Position numbers and translations under genes: made by a program. A stretch of 36,695 nucleotides of DNA, taken from the NCBI GenBank assembly GCA_003650545.1, contig QMQO01000001.1:68845-105539 (forward strand), read 5' to 3'. The DNA is from Candidatus Woesearchaeota archaeon. Lineage in GTDB: Archaea; Nanobdellota; Nanobdellia; Woesearchaeales; B72-G16. Shown piece after piece: positions 895 through 35,304 of this stretch; within the stretch, counting starts at the first letter, position 1, and each line of letters starts with the position of its first letter. The notes under the pieces are model-generated. The model saw nothing but the letters and a program-made list of their open reading frames with translations, was not told the origin of the DNA and did no database searches.

Positions 895-3800
895 TTATTT
901 GCATCCATAAACCTTTATGCTTTTTCTTGCGACTGTGTAGCGGTTTTTGTCTTCAACAATAACTCTTAAATAGCTGTTTTTTGGAATAGCGGCTTTAGTA
1001 TTACAAGTGAACTCATCATCTGCTGTCTGTTCCAGAAGTTTTGGGCAAATCTCTTGATTAACATAAACATTAACCTTTTCTGGGATCTGGCTACAGTCTC
1101 CTTCACGATTGATCTTTATGGTTATCTTGCTATTAATAGGTAAGGGTGTTTTTTGTTTTTCAGGGCAATCATTAACTTCAGGCTCGATGATCTGGATACA
1201 ATGTTCAAGTGATGTATATTCTTCGCCTTTGAATTCTGCAATAATAGCTCCTGGTTCGCAGACTTCGGCAAAATCTGCATCAACAACAGGAGCAACAGCA
1301 CTTGGTGTGCTATCTGTGGTGTAGTATAAATCAGCATGTACTTCGCCTTTTCCAATCGAGAATATGTTTTGGAGGAATGTTTTCATGTCTTCATTATCCT
1401 TATAGTCACTTATATCTGTAGAGCATCTTACTTTAATATTTTCTAGATTGTCAATTGAGATTTTATTTTTATATTCATTTTCTTTTTTGCAAATAAGTTT
1501 TCTGTCTTTGTTATTTATGTAGATATCTATATATGCATTATTCGCTTCACGTGCTCCACAATCATTTGCTACAATCACTTTAATATCTTCACCTTTACAT
1601 AGTGGCTTGCTTGCAACATCGCTTCTTGAAACAGGTTCTATTATTTCTAGCTTGGCGTTGTGTTTACAGATATTGAAGTCTTTAGGGATCATGGCATCGT
1701 ACACTGGCTCGAGCGTAAGTACGAGTTCATTTCCCTCAGAATCTCTCAGCACTTCTGCGCTCTCACCAGTATAATCTTGAATATTTGGATCAGCGTCGTT
1801 GTTCTTGTCGTTGAATAATGTTAACTCTAGCTTGTATCTGCCTGTTTTGAAATCAGGTATGATTTTTTCAGGAGTCTTCTCAAGAATATAGCTAACTTCG
1901 TCATCAACTTTAGCATAGACTGATAATGGTTTAACACTGGGCCGAGTTAAATATATGTTTATATAGCTATTACTAACATCGGAATCATCAGCATCACACT
2001 CTACAGCATATTCATCATCTTTAGTCTGCTGACACTCTATTGTCTGTCTTTGGCCATTTTTAAATAACACCCATTCAGCAGTTATATGATAATATTGGAC
2101 TTGTGTAGTAGAGGCCTCACTACCAATTTCTTCAGTCTGTGTTAATCTTCTATCTGCTACAATAAAAGATATCTTGTGAGGTTGATTATTTTCTATTTTA
2201 GAGATGATTTGAGAGATGTCTATTGGGCCTATTCTGAATTTTTCTTCTTCTTCTTTAAGATTGCTAAATGGTCCGTTTTCACCAAATTCAATAGCCTTGA
2301 TCTCTCTTGGTTTGTCTGGAGTAAGTGTCATAAAGTTACTAATTGTGCCGCGCTTTTTTTCAGTTCCATCAGGATCTTTCAACACCCATTGAACAGATAT
2401 GGGGATTGGCTTTTCAGCATCAGTAGATTCAAGATCGAACTTGACAAACAGAGGACTTCCAGGATAGTATCTCTTGTTTTGAGGCACTAACATTATTTTG
2501 TGCTTTGTAACAGAACCAAAGAATGCTTCAGGCATCAGGCTCTGGCATTTTATCCCAGGTGGAACAATGCTGAAACTACACATATACCCAAGGCCGCCCA
2601 TAAGCTTTATGTTTTCAATCTTTGGCTTGTCATTGCCAGGCTTTGTGAATGAGCCATGGATCTTGTAAGTGTCACCTAGTTGGTATTCATATTCTAGTAT
2701 AACCTTGTTGAACCAATCACCTGTATCAATATTATAATGCATTGTCTTTGTTACCTGGCTCATTGCAGGGATTGTGTATTGTTCTATAAGTAAAGGTTGT
2801 TGTTGGGGTTTACAGCTTTCCTTGTGTTCACCACTTAAAGGATCACACACTAACCAGAGTCTATAGGTTACATCAGTGCTGCCAGAGATTATACCAAGAC
2901 TGATTGTGTAGTCAATACTCAGCTTGTTTGTGAATGGGTTATAGTAGCCTGCTCTTGCCTTTGGCATCATAGGACCTATTATTGGCGGTGTTGGTACAGT
3001 GATGATAGTATCAATTAATGCGTTTATGTCTGTCCAGTCGCCTGTAAATGCAACCATGCAAAACTTGTTAACTAAACCATCTCTGGTAAAACCAATCTGG
3101 CTTGCTAGCTTTGTTCCTGCATATCTGTCCTCAATTGTCTGTTTTGCGGGGTTATCTTGCATAAGTTCTATCATGTTCTCTTTTCTATTTATAAATGTTT
3201 GAGGTCTGTCTCTGGTTGCATACTTCCTAAGCGCGTAGCCGATCCAGTCGCATGTGTACTGGCCGATCATGCGCTCACAATAACCGCCTTGTACCTTACC
3301 ATAATAGGCTTCTGATAGACATTGTTTCATAGCTTCTAGGATTCTCTTATAATTAAGAAGGTGACTATGTATTCCTGTGATACAACCACACTGTATGCTT
3401 GTGATTATGTCGTCATAAGGATTGATGTTTTTCTTGCCAAAGCATTTGACATCGTCAAAGTATGGAGCTTTATCAATATAACAACCTCGCGGCAGAGCTA
3501 GACGTTCTTTGCCAAAACGAGGATTATTTCTTATAGATTGGATATCATCAGAGAAGAATTGTTGATACTCTAGGTTATCAACGCAGATATAATATTCCTC
3601 AGCCCCAGACGATCCTATGCCGCCATATGCAACTGCAGCACCAGGAAAACCAGTGTAGCCTATGACTGTTCTCTTTACAAGCTTCTTGTTGTTCTTGCAT
3701 TTTATGGTTGCTTTGTTATCTTGTGTGGTTATCTCAAAATCTTGGCTATCTAATTGTTTGTATGATTTATATATATCTGAATTCACACTTATTGTTGCTT

Positions 3801-10685: not shown

Positions 10686-12425
10686 TCAGTGGTATTTTTT
10701 TAGGCTCGTCTGTCCCTTCTGTTTGCCTTCTGGCACTTGAATCTTTTCAGTTAGTATCTCTTGTCCTGTCTGTTTTTTGATGTTCAATGCTATGGCTTTA
10801 CCAATTAACTGAGCTAACAATGTTACATCTGCTCTCTTTACATCACCCAGATTGCGAATCTTGTTGTTGAATAGTTTTCTTGCACGTACCCTGCCTATGT
10901 CTTTCAACTTTAGAAGTGGAAGAAGTTCTTCGTGAACACCATATTTGAGACGGAATCTTAACTTTTTAATCTCTCTTAGTAACGATTGAAACTGCAAAAT
11001 TCTAGTTAACTCTTCTGTAGAATAAAGCAACCAGTCGGCAATCTCGAGCTTGACGCGGATCTCGCCCGGACGAATATCGTATTTCTCAAGAAGATATTCT
11101 TCATTGCACTCTTCGATCCAGTCTAGCATAAACAAAGCTGTTTTAACAGAATTGATGTAGTCTCCATATTCTGACCCGTAGATGTCGGGTTCATTCTCTA
11201 GTAGATGATCTTGCCATTCAATGATTGAGCTCTGTATATCCTCATATTCTCTAGTTTTAACACGTAAAAGCGGACGCATCTCTAATGTGTGACTTATAAT
11301 CTGAAGAAATGATATCGGTTTGATGCTATAGGGTTTAGACGCAGCACATTTTATAGCTTCTATGATGTGGTGTGCTGTTAGAGGATCAAGGTATAGTTCA
11401 GCGATTCTCTTGCCGAGAGTGGTTGCTCTATAAGATTCAAAAGATTCTATGTTAATAGAATTGGTTGCTGCATTGTTACCTTCTTTATTGTTATCAAAAT
11501 TGTCAGAATTATTGTTATCAGAATTATTATTGTCGGAGTTATTATTGTCAGAATTATTATTGTTAGAATTATTATTGTCGGAATTATTATTATCAGAAGT
11601 TACAAGACTATCTGCACTAGTAAAATCTTCGGATCCTTTTTTGATGAATTCAAAATCCTCAAGCATGTGGATCACCTTTTCAAGGATTAGTTTTATGTGT
11701 TCCATGTCTTTAAACTGGTGCGCCCAAAATGTTCTCGAAAAGAAATTCAGCATTTCTTTCTTTGTGCTTACAACACCTGTAGCTATTAATGATAGCACAT
11801 ATGTCCTAAGAACAGGTTCAACAGCAAGCTTTGAATATATATCTTCAGGATAACCATTGATGTAACGTTTTATAATCTCTTTTCTTTCATGTTCAGTTGA
11901 TGCGATTGCAACAGCTTCGCCAATCTTTTCGTATTTAGGGCGACCAGCCCTGCCGGACATTTGCATATATTCTAGAACTGGGACATATTTTAATCCCTGA
12001 TGCGTATAACGTTTCAGGTCCTTGGTGATTGCTCTATATGCGGGGAGATCAACACCCATTGCAAGACTGGGGGTACACGCAATGATCTTTAGTTCACCAG
12101 ATCTGAATGCTTCTTCTATAATATCGCGTTGTTTTGCGGTGAGACCAGCATGATGGAATGCTGTACCTTTTTTGACACATTTTGCGAGACGCAAGCATTG
12201 CTTTGTTGGTTTACTTATTGCTTTTAATATCCCATCTGCAAGTTTTGTTAATTTTGTGTTGGTTGTTTTGATATGTTTGGCAATGTCCTCTGCTGTTTTC
12301 TCTGCTGATCTTTTAGTGTTCACAAAGATTAAAGCTTGCTTTTGCTTATTAATCGTATCAATAGCTATATTAATTACAGGATAATCTGTTGGCTGAGCAA
12401 TTTTCATTTGAGAATCAAATTTCAA
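10686..12425 (-). CDS. hel308: Hel308/Hjm Ski2-like helicase, C-terminal part only (RecA2, winged helix, ratchet, HhH); RecA1 with Walker A/B is absent
   Basis: Motifs QALIFVNTKR, AFHHAGL, TPSLAMGVDLPA, QMSGRAGRP, ATTLGKRIAELYLDP and IGRVRARKL are present. There is no GKT or DExH motif. Confidence 0.85.
   Translation of the reverse strand: MKFDSQMKIAQPTDYPVINIAIDTINKQKQALIFVNTKRSAEKTAEDIAKHIKTTNTKLTKLADGILKAISKPTKQCLRLAKCVKKGTAFHHAGLTAKQRDIIEEAFRSGELKIIACTPSLAMGVDLPAYRAITKDLKRYTHQGLKYVPVLEYMQMSGRAGRPKYEKIGEAVAIASTEHERKEIIKRYINGYPEDIYSKLAVEPVLRTYVLSLIATGVVSTKKEMLNFFSRTFWAHQFKDMEHIKLILEKVIHMLEDFEFIKKGSEDFTSADSLVTSDNNNSDNNNSNNNNSDNNNSDNNNSDNNNSDNFDNNKEGNNAATNSINIESFESYRATTLGKRIAELYLDPLTAHHIIEAIKCAASKPYSIKPISFLQIISHTLEMRPLLRVKTREYEDIQSSIIEWQDHLLENEPDIYGSEYGDYINSVKTALFMLDWIEECNEEYLLEKYDIRPGEIRVKLEIADWLLYSTEELTRILQFQSLLREIKKLRFRLKYGVHEELLPLLKLKDIGRVRARKLFNNKIRNLGDVKRADVTLLAQLIGKAIALNIKKQTGQEILTEKIQVPEGKQKGQTSLKKYH
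11506..11595 (-). repeat. Six 15-nt tandem units encoding (SDNNN)n inside hel308
   Basis: GAATTATTATTGTCA-like units on the + strand start at 11506, 11521, 11536, 11551, 11566 and 11581. Confidence 0.9.
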
Positions 12426-18289: not shown

Positions 18290-18398
18290 AGCATCCTAAG
18301 AACTAACATTAAGTTAACTTCTAAAAAAATATATTGGTTTGGTGTTTCTTGAAGAATAAAAAGCTAAAACTAAAGCAAGTGAGAAAAATTATAAAGAA

Positions 18399-18554
18399 TG
18401 AGCCCGAGGGGATTTGAACCCCCGACTTCGAGAGATTAAATCTGTGTTTTGATCTTCACTCGATCTCTAGCCTGGCTTACCTTTTTTTTTCAGGATATCA
18501 GTTTTGCTGTCTCTTGTGAGACTCGAGCACTCCACCAGACTAAGCTACGGGCTC
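18399..18554 (-). tRNA. tRNA-Ile(GAT) with three BHB introns: 18503-18523 (position 30/31), 18465-18495 (37/38), 18427-18456 (45/46)
   Basis: Removing the introns gives a 74-nt cloverleaf: GAGCCCG TA GCTT AGTCTGGTG GAGT G CTCGA CT-GAT-AA TCGAG TGGTC GGGGG TTCAAAT CCCCT CGGGCTC A. Confidence 0.9.
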
Positions 18555-18578
18555 GATGAAAAGGGCCTTATGGCCCAA

Positions 18579-18765
18579 CGCCTCCGGGCAGATTTTCTCG
18601 CTGCGAAAGCAAGCTCACAACATCTCGAACTGCCGACCTTTGCCGGGTAAAGCGTTTAGTTTTACCTTGCGGTGACTGCTAGTAGGTTTAACAGCTTCGT
18701 GGTCTCAGAGAGACTCGCACGCTCTACCTATTGCTCCATGCTTAACATGTCTAAGCTACGGAGGC
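18579..18765 (-). tRNA. tRNA-Asn(GTT) with five BHB introns: 18731-18750 (15/16), 18696-18715 (30/31), 18674-18688 (37/38), 18640-18667 (43/44), 18593-18623 (59/60)
   Basis: Removing the introns gives a 73-nt cloverleaf: GCCTCCG TA GCTT AGTAGGTA GAGC G TGCGG CT-GTT-AA CCGCA AGGTC GGCAG TTCGAGT CTGCC CGGAGGC G. Confidence 0.9.
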
Positions 18766-18788
18766 ATGTATTTTGGATAAATTAGTCG

Positions 18789-18796
18789 TTTTTAAA
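18789..18796 (-). promoter_or_regulatory. Putative TATA box for a tRNA-Asn/tRNA-Ile co-transcript
   Basis: TTTAAAAA lies about 24-31 nt upstream of the tRNA-Asn 5' end. Confidence 0.5.
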
Positions 18797-18921
18797 GTTT
18801 ACTGTTTTCTGTTTTGAGTGCTCATTGTGAAAATTGGTTACAAAAATGATCTTCTATGTTATCTGTTATCTTTCTGAGATTTTATAGTAGAAATTACAGA
18901 AAAAAAATTTAGGTGATTGTA

Positions 18922-27071: not shown

Positions 27072-29287
27072 ATGGCTGAAAGGATGGTTGAAAAGGTTAC
27101 TAGGCTCATGAAAGAGCAATCACAAATCAGAAACATCGCTATTGCGGCCCATATCGATTGAGATTAAAGCGAGAGCTTATTCTCCGAGTGCATGGAAAAA
27201 CCACATTTTCTGATAACCTTCTAGCTGGTGCTGGAATGATGGCTGAAGAACTAGCCGGAAAAGCTTGTGTTCTTGATTTTCGTGAAGACGAACAAGAAAG
27301 AGGAATCACAATCGATGCTGCCAATGTTTCGATGGTGCATGAATTTGAAGGCGAAGAATATCTGATAAATCTTATCGATACTCCAGGTCATGTTGACTTT
27401 GGCGGCGATGTAACAAGAGCGATGCGCGCTGTTGACGGTGCTATTGTGCTTTGTTGCGCTTCTGAAGGGATAATGCCTCAGACAGAGACTGTTCTGAGGC
27501 AGGCTCTAAAAGAAAGAGTTAAGCCTATCTTATTTATCAATAAAACTGATCGCTTGATCAAGGAGCTTCAGCTAACGCCTGAAGCAATGCAAGAACGATT
27601 TATTAACATAATAAACAATGTTAATCAACTGATAAGAGGTATTGCAGAAAAGGAGTACGCAGAAAAATGGCTTGTTAATGTGCAGGATGGTAGCGTTTGT
27701 TTTGGTTCTGCATTTCATAATTGGGCGTTATCTCTTCCATATATGAAAAAGAAGGGAATTACGTTTAAGGATATAATTTCTGCTTACCAAAGTGGAAATG
27801 ATGAGGATTGGAAGGCTCTTAAGAAAAAGGCGCCATTACATGAAGTTGTTCTTGATGCAGTTGTAAAGCATTTACCAAATCCTCTTGAAGCTCAAGAATA
27901 TAGAATCCCTAAGATTTGGCACGGTGAACTTGAAAGTGAAGAAGGTAGGTCGTTAGTCAAATGTGATTCGAAGGGACCATTATTTTTTGTGATTACTAAG
28001 GTTGTTATAGATCCGCAGGCTGGCGAGATTTCAGCTGGCAGGCTCTTTTCTGGAACAATGACTAAAGGAACTCAGGTTTTTTTGAATCGTGCAAGGCAAC
28101 ATGCAAGGATACAACAAGTTTATATTTATAACGGAGCAAAGCGCGAGATTGTTGACAATGTTCCAGCAGGAAACATAATAGGTGTTGGTGGATTGAAACT
28201 GGGTTTACCTGGTGAAACAGTAACCTTTGAAGATACAGAACCGTTTGAGAAGATCACTCACATCTTTGAGCCGGTTGTAACAAAGGCAATCGAAGCTAAG
28301 AAGCCTAGCGACTTACCAAAGTTAATAGAAGTGCTAAGGCAGGTCCAGAAAGAGGATCCTACTATAACAATCAATATTAATGAGGAGACAGGTGAGCATT
28401 TAATGAGTGGGATGGGAGAACTCCACTTGGAGGTTATTGAGCATAGAATTGTTAAGGATAAAGGTATCGAAGTACAGACTTCCCCTCCTATAGTTGTTTA
28501 CAGAGAAGCAATCACAAAACCAGGTGAGGAATATATGGGTAAGTCACCTAACAAACATAATCACCTATTTTTCGAAGTAAGACCATTAATGCCAGAGGTT
28601 GCGAAAAAAATAAAGAAGGATGAAATATATGAAGGTAGGATCAAGAAAAAGGATCAGAAGTTGATAGATGCATTTGTTGAGGCTGGCTATGATGCAAAGA
28701 CAGCTGCGAAGATTAAGAATGTTTGTAAAGGCAATATACTAATAGATGGTACTCGAGGTATAGTACATATTGGCGAGATAATGGAGATGGTAAATGACAT
28801 GTTTGAAGATGTGATGAATGCAGGTCCAATAGCAAGAGAGCCTTGTATTAATATGGAGGTTACACTAACTGATTGTAAACTACATGAAGATGCTATTCAT
28901 CGTGGACCTGCACAGATCTACCCTGCTGTTCGTGAGGGTATCCGTGGAAGTATTATGTCTGCAAAACCCATTATATTTGAACCAGTACAAACATTACAGT
29001 TTGAGGCACCAGCAGAATATATGGGCGAGTTGAGTAAATTAGTGAGCAATAAACGTGGACAGTTATTGGAGATGAACCAAGAAGGAACGATTGTTGTTGT
29101 TAAGGCAAAGTTACCTGTTGGAGAAATGTTTGGATTAAGCTCAGACTTAAGATCTGCAACAGGAGGCAGAGGAAACTTCTATTTGATTGACCAGAGCTAT
29201 CAAAAACTGCCAGACGAGTTACAACAGAAGATCATTAAACAGATTCGTGATAGGAAAGGTTTGAAAGAAGGGCAGGTTGGGGTATAG
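27072..29287 (+). CDS. fusA: Archaeal elongation factor 2, intron-split: exon 1 27072-27158, exon 2 27191-29287 (727 aa after splicing)
   Basis: Exon 1 MAERMVEKVTRLMKEQSQIRNIAIAAHID joins exon 2 HGKTTFSDNLL...ERGITI...DTPGHVDF...HEDAIHRGPAQ. GAGGAGG lies upstream. The ORF-track start at 27158 is an artefact of the intron. Confidence 0.95.
27159..27190 (+). other. 32-nt BHB-type mRNA intron in the EF-2 gene
   Basis: Sequence TGAGATTAAAGCGAGAGCTTATTCTCCGAGTG. Exon helix CCAT/ATGG, central helix ATCG/CGAG, bulges AT|T and TG|C, intron helix GAGA/TCTC, terminal AAGC-GAGA-GCTT hairpin. Confidence 0.88.
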
Positions 29288-31298: not shown

Positions 31299-31555
31299 GC
31301 CGCGGTCGCATAACCTGGTACGCTTACTCGCTTATGTTCGTAAAGCGTACATCTTCCACACTATTGATGGGCTTCGCTTGGCGTGTCCTATCCTGAGCAA
31401 TGGAAGAATGATGGAAGAATGTTATGTGCGATGTGTATGTGAGAAGCGCAGGAGATTGCGCTGGATTGGAGATCCAGTTCCTTTGGGAATTGTGGGTTCA
31501 AAAACGTTGAAGCAAAACTGAAGAAACTTCACGATTGAATTTCCCACCCGCGGCG
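31299..31555 (+). tRNA. tRNA-Ser(GGA) with two BHB introns: 31320-31454 (135 nt, D-loop 20/21) and 31503-31541 (39 nt, 59/60)
   Basis: Spliced 83-nt cloverleaf GCCGCGG...CTGGA TT-GGA-GA TCCAG, long variable arm, GTGGG TTCAAAT CCCAC CCGCGGC G. The length and body match tRNA-Ser(CGA). Confidence 0.9.
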
Positions 31556-33600: not shown

Positions 33601-34137
33601 ATGGCACACACAAAACCAATACCAAAGGTTAAACTTTTTATAGGAATAATGTATGTTAATGAAACTTTCTTTAATAAGGCTGTTGAAATCTTAAAGCAGT
33701 CTTTTGGTGAAGTAGAAGACATATCCGAAAGTTATAATTTTAATCAGTTTACGGATTACTATAACAATGAGATGGGCGATGGGCAAGTGAAAAGATTTAT
33801 CGTTTTCAGGGATTTAATAGATAGGGATGAACTGGCGAATATTAAACATCTAACGAACAAGATTGAAGACGATTTTGCAGTGAATGGTAAACGCTTGATC
33901 AACTTAGATCCTGGCTATCTTACTGAGCATAACGTGGTTTTAGCAAGTGCCAAGGAACAACCGCACAAGGTTTCAATTGGTATGGGTATGTTTGGTGATG
34001 TTGTGCTCGTCTATAGAAGTGGTAACTATAGAAGCTATTTTAAAACATTTGCAGATTATAAAACAGAATTTGTACAGAAATATTTATTAAGTGTAAGAAA
34101 AAAGTATCTTCTGCAAAGGAGGTCGGAAAATGTGTGA
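33601..34137 (+). CDS. DUF4416-family protein
   Basis: FTDYYNNEMG, LANIKHLTNKIE and RLINLDPGYL...VVLASAK. Confidence 0.75.
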   Translation: MAHTKPIPKVKLFIGIMYVNETFFNKAVEILKQSFGEVEDISESYNFNQFTDYYNNEMGDGQVKRFIVFRDLIDRDELANIKHLTNKIEDDFAVNGKRLINLDPGYLTEHNVVLASAKEQPHKVSIGMGMFGDVVLVYRSGNYRSYFKTFADYKTEFVQKYLLSVRKKYLLQRRSENV

Positions 34138-34417
34138 AAATTGTGGATGTGGTTGTGAAAGAAAGGATGTTGATTGTTGCGAGAGCTGTGGAATGCCGAT
34201 GGAGTCTGTTGAGATGAGAGGGGGGGCTAAACCAGATAATAAGTATTGCAAGTATTGTTGTGACGAAAATGGCAATCTCAAGAGTAAGGAGGAAGTAAGG
34301 AAGGGGATGATTGAGTTTTATAAAGCGCAAGGAAAAAGTCAGGAAGAAGCTGAAAAGTTTGTTGACGATTATATGAAGAAGATGCCTGCTTGGAAAGAAG
34401 GAAAAGAAGGAGAATAA
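34130..34417 (+). CDS. Putative zinc-ribbon protein
   Basis: CESCGMPM...YCKYC...MKKMPAWK, with an extra Cys-rich N-terminus. Confidence 0.75.
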   Translation: MCENCGCGCERKDVDCCESCGMPMESVEMRGGAKPDNKYCKYCCDENGNLKSKEEVRKGMIEFYKAQGKSQEEAEKFVDDYMKKMPAWKEGKEGE

Positions 34418-35068: not shown

Positions 35069-35093
35069 GATTGTTATATTCTATGTGTGATGA

Positions 35094-35204
35094 GCCGCGG
35101 TGGCACAATTAGGTACTGCGCTCGCCTCGAGAGCGAGTTCCTTCGGGAATTCCCGGTTCAAAAGCGTTGAATAAACTTAACGATTGAAAATCCGGGCCGC
35201 GGCG
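35094..35204 (+). tRNA. tRNA-Ser(CGA) with one 28-nt BHB intron at 35163-35190 (59/60)
   Basis: GCCGCGG...CTCGC CT-CGA-GA GCGAG, long variable arm, CCCGG TTCAAA|T CCGGG CCGCGGC G; central helix TTCA/TGAA. Confidence 0.93.
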
Positions 35205-35304
35205 TTTTATTACTATTATTATCATGAAATCATAATACTTTTTGTAACTATCTAGTGACTAAAAAAAGACAAAATTTATATATTTTGAATCTATTATTCT
35301 CTTT

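Follow-up and report, generated by a model that had tools for sequence, protein, structure and literature searches.

In Thermoproteales, several introns can interrupt a single tRNA gene at both canonical and non-canonical bulge-helix-bulge (BHB) sites, and such genes are invisible to standard gene finders (Sugahara et al. 2007/2008, as relayed in the available sections of a 2014 review, PMC4033280). The same sections give three introns as the maximum for an archaeal tRNA gene and link multiple introns to an (alpha-beta)2 form of the endonuclease EndA with a Crenarchaea-specific loop. In Asgard genomes, 92–95% of tRNA genes are interrupted according to extracts of one report (PMC11291895). Available portions of a bioRxiv preprint of October 2026 (10.64898/2026.10.13.758758, not peer reviewed) likewise describe most Asgard tRNA genes as interrupted, with ~2.2 intervening sequences each and a maximum of five; the sequences lie at BHB sites, many escape annotators and the presence of EndA does not explain the load. 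Nuclear tRNA genes of the red alga Cyanidioschyzon merolae carry at most three introns each, and RT-PCR indicated stepwise removal in which D-stem and T-loop introns leave before the intron at 37/38 (excerpts of PMC3728597). Extracts of PMC5829648 describe alpha4 EndA as accepting only strict BHB motifs, and also report incomplete predicted tRNA sets in DPANN archaea and a suspicion of hidden, disrupted genes. A literature search on tRNA introns in DPANN and Woesearchaeota found no paper describing genes of the kind reported below.

We analyzed a stretch of 36,695 nt (the window) from a Woesearchaeota MAG (1.64 Mb in 133 contigs, 85% complete, 36% G+C); the window also encodes CDP-archaeol synthase, archaeal EF-2 and EF-1alpha. 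Based on sequence comparisons, we consider it very probable that its minus strand, from 18765 to 18579, holds a tRNA-Asn(GUU) gene of Woesearchaeales (DPANN) that is functional, probably present in a single copy and interrupted by five protein-spliced BHB introns. As in Thermoproteales, canonical and non-canonical BHB sites occur together, several per gene, and the gene escapes finders; unlike the genes described there (as far as the review sections go), it has five introns, belongs to DPANN and is accompanied by a single alpha4-like EndA without such a loop relative to 1a79. As in the portions of the Asgard preprint cited above, tRNA genes of this genome are mostly interrupted (54 introns in 24 genes by a rough census), whereas the system lies in a different superphylum, its five sites are common to many families of one order and a single gene forms a series of zero to five introns within Woesearchaeales. 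Introns in C. merolae are also ectopic, multiple and of BHB type according to the excerpts used; that organism is a eukaryote with some permuted genes, while the exons here are collinear. With five introns in a 73-nt tRNA, the gene ties the highest printed count that we found, in the available part of the Asgard preprint, and is an extreme, record-tying case of a multi-intron tRNA. A first-pass annotation of the window, made from the letters alone, had put the maximum at about three introns per gene, and the 2014 review sections do give three; it also held that five would exceed what is known. That second claim fails on two counts, the maximum of five intervening sequences in one gene given in the preprint and a relative (G067) that carries the same five introns.

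The 187 nt divide into alternating exons and introns of 15/20/15/20/7/15/6/28/16/31/14 nt, of which 114 nt are intron (Table 1), and plain numbering of the product coincides here with standard tRNA numbering. ARAGORN identifies the 73-mer left by in-silico splicing as tRNA-Asn(gtt). Its cloverleaf forms 21 of 21 stem pairs (acceptor 7 bp, D 4 bp, anticodon and T 5 bp each), and the anticodon and T loops measure 7 nt. The textbook invariant positions of tRNA are all present in the product (U8, A14, G18 G19, A21, U33, G53 U54 U55 C56 R57 A58 and C61). The anticodon GTT occupies positions 34–36, within exon 3, and the discriminator is G73, an identity element of tRNA-Asn; neither differs in any of the 28 orthologues. 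The locus opens with a typical tRNA 5' end and closes with the complementary 3' acceptor strand plus G, CCA is not encoded, and no split or permuted layout is seen, the six exons being collinear on one strand within 187 nt. As a proxy for a covariance score, we used the intron-free tRNA-Asn of a relative (G025), located at one of two adjacent Rfam matches (67.7 and 71.0 bits); it is identical to the spliced product at 57 of 73 positions. The first-pass annotation had given the gene the same identity, ends, intron lengths and sites, intron share, two micro-exons and 73-nt cloverleaf, and all of these were reproduced exactly; we add that the gene reads on the minus strand.

Table 1. Coordinates of the focal tRNA-Asn gene and of neighboring and related features; positions refer to the window except in the last row.
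Feature	Coordinates	Strand	Details
TATA-like box TTTAAAAA	18789..18796	-	24–31 nt upstream of position 1
Exon 1	18751..18765	-	tRNA 1–15: 5' acceptor strand, U8, 5' D-stem, A14
Intron 1, 20 nt, at 15/16	18731..18750	-	GCTT/GAGC, central 4/4; inner 5 bp; outer none
Exon 2	18716..18730	-	tRNA 16–30: G18 G19, 3' D-stem, 5' anticodon stem
Intron 2, 20 nt, at 30/31	18696..18715	-	CGTG/CACG, central 4/4; inner GTCTC/GAGAC, 5 bp; outer 2 bp
Exon 3, 7-nt micro-exon	18689..18695	-	tRNA 31–37, anticodon GTT
Intron 3, 15 nt, at canonical 37/38	18674..18688	-	CTGT/GCAG, central 4/4; inner none (bulge-helix-loop type)
Exon 4, 6-nt micro-exon	18668..18673	-	tRNA 38–43, 3' anticodon stem
Intron 4, 28 nt, at 43/44	18640..18667	-	ACCG/CGGC, central 3/4 (A.C mismatch); inner 6 bp
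Exon 5	18624..18639	-	tRNA 44–59: variable loop, 5' T-stem, T-loop to 59
Intron 5, 31 nt, at 59/60 (T-loop)	18593..18623	-	TTCG/AGAA, central 3/4 (G.A mismatch); inner 9 bp
Exon 6	18579..18592	-	tRNA 60–73: 3' T-stem, 3' acceptor strand, G73
Spacer to next tRNA gene, 24 nt	18555..18578	-	GGGCC-ATAA-GGCCC hairpin, then TTTT
tRNA-Ile(GAU)-like gene, three intervening segments	18399..18554	-	Rfam tRNA, 38.7 bits
EndA / RNase Z pair	L101 (G000:C6:36771-40031) 1474-2004 and 2078-3022	- and +	profile matches

It had also been predicted that standard finders would miss this gene, and they do: the unspliced form is called neither by ARAGORN nor by the Rfam tRNA model (RF00005), including in a scan at permissive E-values. 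Over the whole window, the sole ARAGORN call was an uninterrupted tRNA-Glu gene, and Rfam returned the same tRNA-Glu together with an interrupted tRNA at 18554–18399, leaving out the focal stretch. An Rfam E-value scan of 18300–18900 recovered no other RNA family in the introns. An independent Logan contig from the probable source run spans 18300–18900 with zero differences. Upstream, the TATA-like box is preceded by an A-rich, BRE-like stretch, and GAAAnCTATATAAAC-like boxes occur at a similar distance in at least nine orthologues; the box is a putative promoter element. Downstream, the hairpin and TTTT of the spacer may serve as a terminator or as a signal for processing.

BHB geometry fits at all five sites. 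A 4-nt central helix with correctly spaced cuts had been described for every intron; the spacing stands throughout, and the full helix is found in introns 1–3 (4/4 pairs), while introns 4 and 5 each form three of the four pairs. Inner helices measure 5, 5, 0, 6 and 9 bp in introns 1–5, respectively. The strict hBHBh' form does not apply overall, as only introns 2, 4 and 5 have both inner and outer helices in the unspliced RNA; intron 1 is relaxed through the lack of an outer helix (HBh') and intron 3 through the lack of an inner one (BHL-like). The outer helix of intron 3 is the anticodon stem, which becomes contiguous only after removal of intron 2, that of intron 4 has 3 bp and exists only while intron 3 is still present, and that of intron 5 is the 5-bp T-stem.

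Because ten free cut points give much freedom of parsing, we applied three controls. The concern is that ten cuts, for which 187 nt offer very many possible parses, could trim almost any sequence of this length into a cloverleaf, particularly as a 4/4 central helix alone is common, occurring at 2.2% of random site/length pairs. Against this, spliced alignment of the 73-mer to the whole genome scored 106.5 at the focal locus and no more than 51.5 elsewhere, compared to at most 50 for the reversed query and 42.5–54.5 for the 22 reversed queries of the genome-wide census described below. A BHB quality filter (central helix of at least 3/4 plus inner helix of at least 5 bp) was passed by four of the five introns, compared to 1390 of 1,348,500 random site/length pairs of the genome (0.1%). 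Together with 27 independent orthologues, these results effectively refute a chance parse.

The comparative series is the strongest evidence for the predicted parse and the decisive one. Same-gene matches, seen initially in a smaller set of 41 relatives, were collected by a DNA search with the 187 nt across 401 genomes of the same order, of which 28 matched at E ≤ 1e-5, own genome included. Each of the 28 loci contains a single complementary acceptor-strand pair that bounds a gene of 95–187 nt, and introns were then permitted only at the five focal sites. All 28 genes yielded a 73-nt tRNA-Asn(gtt) by ARAGORN, with 21/21 pairs in 26 of them and 19/21 in the other two (L112 and L116), where the 37–44 region is ambiguous. 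Genes with one, two, three, four and five introns number 3, 11, 8, 4 and 2; the second five-intron gene, from G067, belongs to a different family and uses the same five sites. Three further relatives (G025, G028 and G031) have an intron-free tRNA-Asn. With one to five introns at exactly these sites in 27 relatives and none in these three, every junction is thus uninterrupted somewhere. Site occupancy among the 28 is 22 at 15/16, 15 at 30/31, 25 at 37/38, 7 at 43/44 and 6 at 59/60, and the uninterrupted junction is found in 6, 13, 3, 21 and 22 orthologues for sites 1–5, respectively.

At the three more frequently occupied sites, the motifs recur across the series. All 22 introns at 15/16 have a 4/4 central helix, and the second pair of their inner helix covaries (A-T in 12, G-C in 10). 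The 15 introns at 30/31 are also 4/4 without exception, two genes carrying a compensatory exon/intron change to CGTA/TACG, and at 37/38 the central helix is complete in 17 of 25.

The two remaining sites bear on a different reading, namely that the gene is real and not all five segments are EndA introns, with the 43/44 or the T-loop insert being retained or otherwise removed, or with the anticodon region parsed differently. In its favor are the 3/4 central helices of introns 4 and 5, the presence of a 4/4 helix in only one of six orthologues at 59/60 and the behavior of the aligner, which with a divergent reference treated the focal gene from intron 3 through intron 4, exon 4 included, as one gap. 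At 43/44, the central helix is 4/4 (CGGT) in 5 of 7 genes. Against this reading, an inner helix of 5–9 bp lies beside the central helix in 6 of 7 introns at 43/44, and at 59/60 an inner helix of at least 3 bp (4–9 bp) is present in 5 of 6. The inner helices at these two sites (4–9 bp) all differ in sequence among orthologues, and the intron sequences of our genome and G067 cannot be aligned at either site. Orthologues without each insert show exactly the predicted junction (in the numbers given above), and in our reading of the motif parse the BHB register is lost when the cuts are moved by a single base. We therefore regard this reading as very unlikely and retain five EndA introns.

For the history of the sites, an EF-2 tree placed the focal genome with G115 (two introns), G067 (five) and G327 (four), a weak grouping (SH-aLRT 88). 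Mapped on this tree for 26 genomes, the minimum numbers of changes at sites 1–5 are 6, 6, 3, 5 and 5, which are rough values because the tree is a quick, single-gene one with many unsupported forks (11 of 23 inner branches). The EF-2 matches themselves (L001, L003, L004 and others) span ~2700 nt in many relatives compared to ~2080 nt in the window and in other relatives, and the longer ones may contain inteins.

A decaying pseudogene would also accumulate inserts, in that case junk that is never removed, with a working tRNA-Asn elsewhere. The assembly is only 85% complete, one mismatch sits in each of two central helices and the one public run listed for this DNA, its probable source, is a DNA run, all of which leave some room for this explanation. 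Nonetheless, neither the anticodon nor any of the 21 stem pairs is disrupted, and the spacing of the TATA-like box is as expected. The same interrupted design occurs in 27 other genomes, where compensatory changes maintain the BHBs. A check for another tRNA-Asn, proposed in the first-pass annotation, found no locus above background in the 1.64 Mb of this 85%-complete assembly, by either spliced alignment or the census. Decay is therefore highly improbable, and a functional gene is the reading that we carry forward. A second, compact tRNA-Asn may lie on the missing ~15% of the genome, and single-copy status stays probable, not firmer, because the MAG is 85% complete.

The genome encodes one EndA, a 176-aa protein (G000:C6:38247-38774) matching PF02778, PF01974 and TIGR00324 (117.5 bits against a cut-off of 59.6). 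Its residues 5–176 align with residues 1–171 of PDB 1a79, a homotetrameric (alpha4) EndA which we take to be that of Methanocaldococcus jannaschii, with one 1-residue gap (E = 3.5e-33), and it is without the 6-residue insert that precedes the catalytic His of 3iey_A. Searches at E ≤ 10 found no paralogue in our genome, nor in the single-contig G016 (100% complete) or G025 (99% complete). It is collinear with 1a79, and exactly one copy is present in 30 of 32 genomes searched; the two genomes without EndA are 78% and 87% complete. As to the lineage-specific specificity loops (L1/CSL, L2/ASL and, at a less certain position, L3), the protein has the same layout as 1a79, and in an alignment of 30 EndA proteins no core indel tracks intron number, only a Lys-rich N-terminal tail being variable. 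A single gene for a protein of ~170–180 aa, with N- and C-terminal EndA domains and without a beta subunit or fused repeat, has the features of the alpha4 type. The enzyme is alpha4-like. The architecture check proposed by the first-pass annotation is thereby answered as to class, from single-gene features and homology, while the tetramer itself is deduced from homology. The same annotation had expected a broad-specificity endonuclease, and the sole EndA found speaks against this, as its architecture is regarded in the literature as narrow in specificity. Unlike strict alpha4 enzymes, this EndA would have to process introns with no outer helix or with no inner one.

RNase Z (TIGR02651, 305 bits) adjoins the EndA gene, divergently transcribed at a distance of 73 nt. 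RtcB, the tRNA ligase, is present outside the window (G000:C10:11502-14324, minus strand) as one open frame of 1008 aa. Its Pfam match is split into positions 1–50 and 45–426, ~1.5 kb apart, and the insert in the frame looks intein-like.

The five BHBs occupy separate nucleotides and fit a single nested structure of −53.8 kcal/mol (−58.6 with extra pairs), and folding thus imposes no splicing order. The earlier view that five introns imply ordered, stepwise splicing is to this extent not supported. The precursor fold is more stable than 200 of 200 shuffles (z = −3.6). The unconstrained MFE of −68 kcal/mol retains BHB 1, at 15/16, as well as two inner hairpins (introns 2 and 5), and prefers a helix between exon 2 and intron 4 over BHB 2 and BHB 4. 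Against our preferred explanation of a functional, protein-spliced gene, this MFE fold competes with the all-BHB fold, and the relaxed motifs (a mismatch in introns 4 and 5, no outer helix in intron 1, no inner helix in intron 3) face a sole alpha4-like EndA, a type described as strict.

Beyond the DNA, we infer the following pathway. Transcription would start from the upstream TATA box, perhaps jointly with the tRNA-Ile gene, and each intron would fold locally within the 187-nt precursor. Four exon bases located 3–6 nt before the 5' cut would pair with four intron bases at the same distance before the 3' cut. Two bulges of 3 nt would remain, and in four of the five introns an inner hairpin would adjoin this helix. 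The single alpha4-type EndA would then cut both bulges of each motif, ten cuts in total, RtcB would ligate the six exons and circularize the introns, and RNase P, RNase Z and CCA addition would complete the ends. Cut-and-join cycles are probably interleaved, because the 7- and 6-nt exons would keep no more than a few pairs once every cut had been made, with no fixed order required by folding. Just one base pair connects the 7-nt exon to the remainder of the tRNA, and this exon would probably be lost if all sites were cut at once.

We aligned 82 reference tRNAs from three relatives to the 25% of the source genome outside long ORFs. This census gave 24 loci with an ARAGORN-accepted spliced product, 21 of them interrupted, and ~54 introns; these counts are rough lower bounds. 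Loci with zero, one, two, three, four and five introns number 3, 4, 4, 11, 1 and 1, the four-intron gene being tRNA-Arg(CCU) and the five-intron gene the focal tRNA-Asn. Interruption of predicted tRNA genes is thus genome-wide in this MAG. The census includes a tRNA-Leu locus (C1:54278); a tRNA-Phe locus was left unvalidated. Three other routes to hidden genes were abandoned: a search for GC islands (1095 islands) was useless, a regular expression for uninterrupted T-arms gave 24 matches, of which roughly 50% were GC-rich and plausible, a number too small to base a census on, and the Rfam tRNA model at E ≤ 10 returned only 16 matches in the genome.

The Rfam model identifies 7 tRNAs in this genome. 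Among five relatives, it identifies 11 in G011 and 26–38 in the four others, whose genes are compact. The 7 Rfam calls compared to at least 24 census loci show that DPANN tRNA sets are badly under-called, and missing tRNAs should therefore not be read as gene loss.

A broader reading is that Woesearchaeales are a third hot-spot of tRNA introns, counting Thermoproteales and some Asgard lineages as the other two, in which recurrent gain and loss at a few fixed sites would be handled entirely, relaxed motifs included, by a loop-less alpha4-type EndA. We put this forward only tentatively and think it somewhat less likely to be right than wrong. If true, the accepted link of EndA loop and architecture to many non-canonical introns fails, and an alpha4 enzyme manages ten cuts and two exons of 6–7 nt per precursor. 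A series of zero to five introns at the same five sites, alongside the same single EndA, is a natural system for intron gain and loss, and bears on the minimum length of a spliceable exon and on the strictness of alpha4 endonucleases. The value of the gene lies in this series, and in the mismatch between a plain alpha4-like EndA and many relaxed introns, more than in the record.

The tRNA-Ile(GAU)-like gene starts 24 nt downstream of tRNA-Asn and, when spliced against the compact Ile(GAU) of a relative, is called Ile(gat) by ARAGORN, with an approximate third junction near 43/44. The same Asn–Ile tandem occurs in G025 in compact form. A GTCTC/GAGAC hairpin is common to intron 2 of tRNA-Asn and the 30/31 insert of tRNA-Ile; it is found at four loci compared to ~2.4 expected (4.8 on both strands) and is only suggestive of a shared origin. 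A BLAST comparison of 58 census introns against each other gave no cross-gene match at E ≤ 1e-3 that would indicate shared intron origin, the exceptions being loci that had been called twice and a single match of 13 nt.

Several other interrupted genes were observed. Outside the window, tRNA-Arg(CCU) (G000:C7 ~34071-34226, plus strand), the second most interrupted gene of the census, has inserts of 13, 18, 11 and 40 nt. The D-loop inserts of tRNA-Ala(UGC) (G000:C2 ~12016-12302, minus strand) and tRNA-Lys(CUU) (C15 ~27988-28160, minus strand) both read GCATGC..AGCA..GGTTAGCGG by eye, and BLAST gave no match for this pair at E ≤ 1e-3. Within the window, at approximate coordinates, the D-loop of tRNA-Ser(GGA) (~31299-31555, plus strand) holds an insert of 135 nt and its T-loop one of 39 nt, and tRNA-Ser(CGA) (~35093-35205, plus strand) has a 28-nt T-loop insert. 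By eye, the T-loop inserts of the two tRNA-Ser genes are alike (AACGTTGAA...ACGATTGA).
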